The notes under the pieces were generated by a model that saw nothing but the letters and a program-made list of their open reading frames with translations, had not been told where the DNA came from and searched no databases. 64,000 bases of DNA, taken from sequence record LC788708.1. One strand, written 5' to 3'. Within the stretch, counting starts at the first letter, position 1, and each line of letters opens with the position of its first letter. Origin of the DNA: Escherichia coli phage AZ21. This document shows positions 17,402 to 17,770 of this stretch, one piece after another. The position numbers were made by a program, and so were the translations under genes.

Positions 17402-17770
17402 ATGAAAGCATATCAAAGTCTTAAGTCTGGCGTAATTAACCTTGTTCATGATAACCAGATCATTCAGCTATATTCTAAAGATGGTGAACTTAAACAAAAG
17501 GTTCTAGTTGAAGATCTAGAGGGTATCACACCTCATTTTGACCCTGAGGCCTTCCGCATTGTAGATGTAGAAGTGGTTCCTCAAGTCGAGGGTGGTCAGC
17601 ACCTAAATGTCAATGTGTTAAGCCGTGATCAGCTTTTGGATGCACAGAAACATCCTGAAAAATATCCTCAGTTGACCATCCGTGTCTCTGGCTATGCTGT
17701 TCGATTTAACGCATTGACGCGTGAACAACAGAACGACGTTATTAGTCGTACATTTACTCAGGCGATATAA
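17402..17770 (+). CDS. grcA: GrcA/YfiD-like autonomous glycyl-radical cofactor protein
   Basis: C-terminal [11 protein letters not shown]...[23 protein letters not shown] glycyl-radical motif closely matches E. coli YfiD/PFL C-terminus. Confidence 0.8.

Follow-up and report, generated by a model that had tools for sequence, protein, structure and literature searches.

The small open reading frame that lies just beyond the tRNA genes of Escherichia coli phage AZ21 (LC788708.1) raises the question of whether a phage might supply its own replacement part for a host enzyme that is damaged by oxygen. A preliminary description of the 64,000-nucleotide stretch of DNA analyzed here (hereafter called the window) had proposed that this gene encodes a spare-part protein resembling the glycyl-radical cofactor GrcA, also called YfiD. 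From the sequence comparisons presented below, it is very probable that the product is a stand-alone cofactor of the GrcA/YfiD type that repairs oxygen-damaged pyruvate formate-lyase (PFL) of the host. The features of the locus on which this reading is built are as follows.

17402..17770, plus strand: GrcA-like coding sequence from the ORF list, with an ATG start, 122 amino acids and a TAA stop

17392..17396, plus strand: Shine-Dalgarno sequence GGGAG, 5 nucleotides before the ATG, read from the sequence

17402..17581, plus strand: N-terminal half (amino acids 1-60), whose ends are GrcA-like and whose middle appears specific to the T5 lineage

17582..17767, plus strand: C-terminal glycyl-radical domain (amino acids 61-122), which mimics PflB residues 698-759 (Pfam PF01228)

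17681..17701, plus strand: RVSGYAV radical-site motif, with the Gly97 codon GGC at 17690-17692

17143..17218, plus strand: tRNA-Met(CAT), the last member of a six-tRNA cluster (ARAGORN, Rfam)

17852-18151, plus strand: 99-amino-acid ORF of the T5.055 family (phrog_4499), immediately downstream of the GrcA-like gene

The window derives from a T5-like phage. Except for a single 1.84-kb indel, its sequence agrees at 99.99% identity with that of E. coli phage AZ23 (LC788707.1, Tequintavirus), which bears out the earlier statement that the gene is phage-encoded. A megablast search with positions 16800-18300 returned 100% identity to AZ23 and, from position ~17132 onward, 99.7-99.9% identity to many T5-like phages of Salmonella and Escherichia. 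The coding sequence is 100% identical to the AZ23 CDS AZ23E_0680, the reading frame is intact, and its translation agrees with the residues quoted in the preliminary description. In addition, the record of Salmonella phage Seafire has an annotated ribosome-binding site at the corresponding place.

The indel that separates the two phages lies well upstream of the gene. At a junction spanning 14041-14090, AZ21 lacks the ~1.84 kb of AZ23 (L004, ~12250-14041) that carries nadR, encoding an NMN adenylyltransferase/ribosylnicotinamide kinase, and pnuC, encoding a nicotinamide riboside transporter. Approximately 50 bp at this junction align to both sides of the AZ23 segment, an arrangement suggesting that a direct repeat mediated either a deletion or an insertion.

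The gene had also been described as sitting among tRNAs. It does adjoin the six-tRNA cluster, but it lies at the edge of this cluster, 183 nucleotides downstream of the terminal tRNA-Met, and is followed by a run of small ORFs without assigned function. We take this neighborhood to be part of the early region, as it is treated in the T5 literature. In T5 itself, the orthologue (T5.056) likewise comes directly after tRNA-Met, and the gene order tRNA-Met, T5.056, T5.055 is flanked by the annotated promoter P11 and by a terminator downstream of T5.055. Consensus scans around the AZ21 gene gave no promoter or terminator above shuffled expectation, and no convincing promoter was found by such a scan in the 183-nucleotide spacer. 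Because no separate promoter or terminator was found, the simplest reading is that the gene is probably co-transcribed with the tRNA cluster.

Several other features of the surrounding sequence were observed. A mosaic breakpoint is located at ~16800-17135, such that only AZ23 matches the DNA upstream of ~17132; in this region other T5-like phages carry tRNA-Ile, whereas AZ21 carries tRNA-Tyr (16848-16935) and a 63-amino-acid ORF (16953-17144). An extra tRNA-like match at 12194-12265 (plus strand) was reported by Rfam with 35.5 bits (gathering score 29), and is absent from both the ARAGORN output and the AZ23 annotation. On the other side of the gene, within a run of small conserved T5-lineage genes, a 117-amino-acid ORF at 18461-18814 (plus strand) gave a full-length match to Pfam DUF7295 (E 1.5e-61).

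The sole domain recognized in the GrcA-like protein is the Pfam Gly_radical domain (PF01228, InterPro IPR001150), which matches amino acids 62-103 with a score of 66.1 bits (cut-off 22.2; E 4.7e-18). The protein also matches the solved structure of YfiD (6owr; E 2.4e-29) and structures of E. coli PFL (E 1.7e-26). The preliminary description had noted that the C-terminal ~60 residues parallel both YfiD and PFL, including an RVSGY radical site, and had suggested a pairwise alignment to E. coli GrcA. When this alignment was carried out by BLASTP, 55 of 74 residues proved identical (74%, E 1e-37). The GrcA sequence used for this comparison is confirmed over residues 53-126 by the 6owr alignment, and at full length it scores 234 bits on the family model TIGR04365. 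Over the last 61 aligned residues, 49 are identical to GrcA (80%) and 47 to PflB 698-758 (77%), and so the parallel with both proteins holds. The radical-site motif R94-V-S-G97-Y-A-V is exact in the AZ21 protein, and both the glycine and its surroundings are retained, so that the loss which the preliminary description had named as refuting is not observed.

Conservation of this site extends well beyond the pairwise comparison, as R94-V95-S96-G97-Y98-A99 is invariant across our alignments, and the radical domain contains 34 invariant columns in a 34-sequence alignment of phage and bacterial GrcA homologues. Gly97 corresponds to Gly102 of GrcA and to Gly734 of PflB, two PflA substrates whose site motif is identical to that of the phage protein, and is the predicted site of hydrogen abstraction by the host PFL-activating enzyme. 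An AlphaFold2 model of the protein (mean pLDDT 77) places Gly97 at the tip of a hairpin (residues 92-95/98-101) between helices formed by residues 75-83 and 107-117. A Foldseek search with this C-terminal half matched YfiD (6owr; TM 0.75 on target, E 5e-6) and PFL (2pfl).

The protein is therefore like E. coli GrcA/YfiD (P68066; NMR structure 6owr) in being a stand-alone PFL-type domain whose Gly-loop hairpin is flanked by helices, and it is of similar length (122 versus 127 amino acids). It differs from GrcA in that its N-terminal 50 residues show no significant pairwise similarity, and in that it is encoded by a phage beside a tRNA cluster, outside host control. The resemblance to the C-terminal domain of PflB (residues 698-759; 2pfl, 1h16) extends to residues 'LLDA' and 'TFTQ', which are absent from GrcA. 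This segment of PflB is the one lost on oxygen cleavage, and the phage protein is predicted to replace it.

Membership in several protein families was also evaluated. We took as the mark of a PFL a ten-stranded barrel of about 760 amino acids with a Cys418/Cys419 active site. On the PFL model TIGR01255, the AZ21 protein reaches 84.3 of the 994.2 bits required, matching only profile positions 683-743. Unlike PflB, this 122-amino-acid protein has neither the catalytic barrel nor Cys418/Cys419, and therefore the label 'pyruvate formate-lyase' is a misnomer. Its size and layout are instead those of a spare part, with an N-terminal half, a helix-hairpin-helix C-terminal half in the AlphaFold2 model, and no barrel. 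On the GrcA model TIGR04365, it scores 118.3 bits against a cut-off of 170, with only amino acids 54-121 matched, and it likewise falls below the cut-offs of the other NCBIfam GrcA models (GrcA3, 115.6 versus 158; GrcA2, 90.1 versus 145). E. coli GrcA attains its 234 bits on TIGR04365, and the vs.6 protein of phage T4 scores 151.1, also short of 170. Since vs.6 is a biochemically validated spare part, this cut-off delimits the bacterial equivalog and not the function.

The T4 protein (UniProt P13316, GRCA_BPT4) is annotated as GrcA in the T4 record, and aligns with the AZ21 protein over the full length with 66 of 129 positions identical (51%, E 7e-38). vs.6 is the Y06I protein of Wagner et al. 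2001, and in Andorfer et al. 2021 (PMC8683613) YfiD and Y06I are presented, from the work of Knappe and co-workers, as ~14-kDa 'spare part' proteins in which a glycyl radical is installed by the PFL-activating enzyme (PFL-AE). The same paper also relates the finding of Wagner et al. 2001 that activated YfiD or Y06I forms a complex with oxygen-cleaved PFL in which activity is regained, and names these two as the only validated PFL spare parts (PMC8683613). According to a 2026 review, no spare parts have been identified for glycyl-radical enzymes other than formate lyases (PMC13450708). In vivo, the radical is transferred between molecules, from Gly102 of GrcA to Cys419 of PflB, and GrcA restores formate production by the full-length PflB variant G734A (PMC12338860).

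The AZ21 protein resembles T4 vs.6 in being phage-encoded, approximately 120 amino acids long and of two-part layout, with an 'MKAYQ' start and an identical radical site; T4 and the T5-like phages are also both virulent coliphages that encode NrdD. These proteins differ in that the radical domain of vs.6 is almost identical to that of E. coli GrcA and its N-terminal half aligns to GrcA from residue 22 (72% over 100 amino acids), whereas the T5-type protein aligns to GrcA only from residue 51. Moreover, vs.6 has been validated biochemically, whereas the T5-type assignment rests on sequence. On this footing, size, two-part layout, the exact RVSGYAV motif and the full-length alignment with vs.6 all favor the spare-part identity proposed in the preliminary description. 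Outside the T5 lineage, the nearest relatives are encoded by jumbo phages of ~350 kb (e.g. Salmonella phage SE_PL and Klebsiella phage K64-1) and by large (~250-kb) Vibrio phages, which share the same architecture at 57-58% full-length identity. The N-terminal halves of these relatives show the 'GTI.L....AR..VSK' pattern of the T4 and bacterial GrcA proteins, which the T5-type protein lacks.

By analogy with these systems, the host radical-SAM activase PflA (PFL-AE) would take a hydrogen from Gly97 in the RVSGYAV loop. The C-terminal domain would then dock into a host PFL that has been cut by oxygen at Gly734 or is otherwise without a radical. Finally, the Gly97 radical would be passed to Cys419 of PflB, and conversion of pyruvate and CoA to acetyl-CoA and formate would resume. 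We infer all three of the elements on which this scheme depends, namely activation by PflA, docking with PflB and benefit to the phage. PFL supplies acetyl-CoA, ATP via acetate kinase, and formate. In cells infected by T5 or T4, the expression of host genes is shut off and the host DNA is degraded, and so such a cell should be unable to replace oxygen-damaged PflB or to induce grcA. It seems likely that the benefit of the phage gene is to sustain the fermentative production of ATP, acetyl-CoA and formate when the host is micro-oxic or anaerobic.

Activation of the protein deserves particular attention. T4 has its own NrdG activase, whereas none could be detected in the T5-like phage: the annotations of T5 and AZ23 list no such gene, and none was recovered by a tblastn search with NrdG of Aeromonas phage PX29 or when every ORF of 80 amino acids or more in the window and the rest of AZ23 was scanned for CX3CX2C. 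We infer from this result that host PflA must activate the protein. Two ORFs were considered and rejected as candidates. The ORF at 17852-18151, which carries the CX3CX2C-like string 'CICSCWMC', was evaluated both as a mini-activase and as a partner. Its N-terminus is very basic, and it carries a 'TPCICSCWMCGNPRK' cluster that contains the CX3CX2C pattern and whose cysteines are invariant among T5-like phages. The ORF gave no Pfam or PDB match, members of its T5.055 family occur only in T5-like phages and are missing beside the GrcA genes of T4 and PX29, and its product is not large enough for a radical-SAM enzyme. The ORF beside nrdD was rejected because it is a T5orf172/DUF4379 protein.

In AZ23, this latter ORF (L009, 30788-31459, just outside the window) encodes 223 amino acids with DUF4379 zinc-finger, CapR-homology and T5orf172 segments, and overlaps the start of nrdD. 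The T5 record has only promoters at the equivalent position. The ORF is probably a mobile endonuclease-type insertion.

The N-terminal half of the GrcA-like protein poses a separate problem, because it is here that the T5-type sequences depart from their relatives. In the 34-sequence alignment this half is variable and the T5-type is an outlier. Pairwise BLASTP with residues 1-60 found no similarity to the N-terminal half of T4 vs.6, and aligned only residues 51-60 to E. coli GrcA. The ends of this half nevertheless resemble those of other GrcA proteins, with an 'MKAYQxLKS' start and a strand at amino acids 50-60. Profile comparison by hhalign of residues 1-61 with other N-terminal halves gave a probability of 92% (E 4.9e-7). 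When residues 1-49 were compared, only amino acids 1-9 aligned ('MKAYQSLKS' versus the 'MKxxQI' consensus), with a score of 19.9, as against 8.1 ± 1.8 (maximum 14.3) for 100 column shuffles. Because the comparison of residues 1-49 retains only this short start, both ends of the N-terminal half appear to be common to GrcA proteins and residues 10-49 appear specific to the T5 lineage.

The AlphaFold2 model gives this half a set of beta strands at a pLDDT of 79-89, for which a Foldseek search against the PDB returned no match. NMR shows the first 60 residues of E. coli YfiD to be disordered in solution (PMC8683613), and we considered whether a folded N-terminal domain might distinguish the phage protein from YfiD. 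This idea was rejected, because a bacterial GrcA used as a control (Pantoea, 127 amino acids, same alignment) also receives a beta-rich N-terminal half (pLDDT 85-91), and the predicted fold therefore offers no basis for claiming a difference. If anything, the similar strand patterns of the two models argue for a common architecture.

These characteristics bear on the alternative that the protein is directed at a different target, such as TdcE (2-ketobutyrate formate-lyase) or intact PflB without a radical, with specificity conferred by the lineage-specific segment. YfiD's N-terminal half plays a part in the binding of cleaved PFL and in efficient activation (PMC8683613). Since residues 10-49 of the T5-type protein cannot be aligned to this half or to that of T4 vs.6, its mode of binding to PFL could differ from that of YfiD, and yet the segment lies in a half that is under purifying selection. 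The rescue of full-length PflB G734A by GrcA in vivo (PMC12338860) also speaks for this alternative. However, the radical domain is nearly invariant relative to GrcA proteins that are directed at PFL, both ends of the N-terminal half appear to be shared with other GrcA proteins, and the bacterial N-terminal half receives a similar strand pattern. We therefore consider a different target to be quite unlikely, while noting that this alternative overlaps with repair of PFL. The divergent 10-49 segment is the main residual uncertainty on target recognition.

The divergence of the N-terminal half might also be taken to indicate that the protein is a decoy or inhibitor, which would titrate host PflA or bind PFL without restoring catalysis and so redirect the flux of pyruvate during infection. 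A decoy would not need the invariance that is observed for all residues of the radical domain that contact the PFL active site, and the T4 homologue restores PFL activity (PMC8683613). Formate is the electron donor of the class III ribonucleotide reductases of E. coli and T4 (PMC4390871), and NrdD is encoded by both AZ23 and T5. A block of PFL would be counter-productive because the phage NrdD depends on formate. This role is thus highly improbable.

The presence of NrdD raises the further possibility that the protein serves as a spare radical domain for this phage enzyme, which oxygen likewise cuts at the glycyl radical, and not for host PFL. T5-like phages encode NrdD, some public records label the ORF as a 'ribonucleotide reductase subunit', and in Aeromonas phage PX29 the homologue directly follows nrdD and nrdG. 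Against this proposal, the AZ21 protein has no NRDD Pfam match and BLASTP against the phage NrdD returns nothing (E 3.1), and the radical site of NrdD, which follows a zinc ribbon and reads '...TRRVCGYLGNPG', belongs to another type. With its 77% identity to PflB 698-758, and with spare parts known for formate lyases only (PMC13450708), we judge the chance that the protein acts on NrdD to be slighter still than that of a decoy.

In PX29 (L011, 859-4447), the vs.6 homologue is located within the cluster nrdD-nrdG-vs.6-nrdC-nrdH and overlaps the end of nrdG. Neither T4 nor T5 shows such a link in gene order between anaerobic ribonucleotide reduction and a spare part for PFL. Among T5-like phages, NrdD is present in ~421 records, compared with 431 that carry the GrcA-like gene; because these genomes are closely related, this co-occurrence is not independent evidence. 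The PX29 cluster and the co-occurrence are consistent with a role in sustaining dNTP and energy supply under anaerobic or micro-oxic conditions.

To establish how widely the gene is distributed, as the preliminary description had suggested for related phages, we used tblastn to search 50,697 phage records, of which 1583 carry a homologue. The T5-like phages account for 438 records at 80% identity or higher, and matches at ~50-80% identity come mainly from T4-like phages of Escherichia, Klebsiella, Shigella, Yersinia and Aeromonas, together with jumbo phages and Vibrio phages. By blastn, 431 records have at least 80% of the gene covered, and the gene is accordingly carried by ~430 T5-like genomes. 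For comparison, the T5-specific gene A1 occurs in 535 records. When sorted by organism name, the GrcA-like gene and A1 are found in 269 and 275 records, respectively, for Salmonella and in 128 and 126 for Escherichia, and thus essentially all T5-like phages of these hosts carry the gene. Among T5-like phages of Klebsiella, 4 records have the gene versus 81 with A1, at megablast sensitivity.

Selection on the gene was estimated by the Nei-Gojobori method with seven T5-like orthologues. The dN/dS ratio is 0.02-0.14 at dS values of up to 0.69, with a range of 0.02-0.17 for the N-terminal half and 0-0.13 for the C-terminal half. Both halves are under purifying selection, and therefore the gene is not a decaying fragment. 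A few records do contain split or truncated versions of 65-67 amino acids (e.g. Salmonella phage SE24 and Citrobacter phage YZU-L1), a pattern that suggests frameshifts or sequencing errors. The notion that the gene was captured as the 3′ end of host pflB or grcA and is now a remnant without function, for which such fragments might speak, can be set aside almost entirely, since it is effectively refuted by the selection analysis and since the AZ21 ORF is intact, has a Shine-Dalgarno sequence and is retained in more than 430 genomes.

The labels given to this protein in public records vary greatly. T5.056 is annotated as a 'putative acetyltransferase-related protein' by way of InterPro IPR001150, the glycine-radical domain. 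At least one record, that of slur09, has 'grcA: Autonomous glycyl radical cofactor' and the misterkot and falkor records have 'glycyl radical cofactor', whereas AZ23 lists a 'hypothetical protein' and the mislabels found in many other records include 'pyruvate formate-lyase', '2-ketobutyrate formate-lyase', 'acetyltransferase-related' and 'ribonucleotide reductase subunit'. A fitting name to replace the wrong labels is GrcA-like autonomous glycyl-radical cofactor. A full-text literature search found no mention of the T5-type protein, and in the literature on GrcA and phages only the T4 precedent was found. The protein is nonetheless already known as a kind, through T4 Y06I in 2001, and is recognized, if inconsistently, in the database annotation of T5-like phages. 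The annotation of the T5 genome had already drawn attention to the T5 orthologue through its glycine-radical domain, and the observation carries little weight as a discovery. Because the T4 counterpart was shown to work in this manner in 2001, we view the T5-type gene as real but ordinary.

A more ambitious proposal, which we regard as doubtful, is that amino acids 10-49 give the protein a different mode of engagement, for example with intact or newly damaged PflB or TdcE and independent of the recognition logic of the host, and that the phage GrcA and NrdD form a functional unit in which formate from PFL feeds anaerobic dNTP synthesis after host shut-off. If this were true, the gene would be a real determinant of the replication of T5-like phages in the oxygen-poor gut. 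On the reading that we favor, repair of oxygen-damaged host PFL, the T5-like and T4-like phages would both pair a PFL repair protein with a formate-dependent anaerobic ribonucleotide reductase, a pairing that suggests a testable adaptation of coliphages to fluctuating habitats in which oxygen is scarce, such as the gut.
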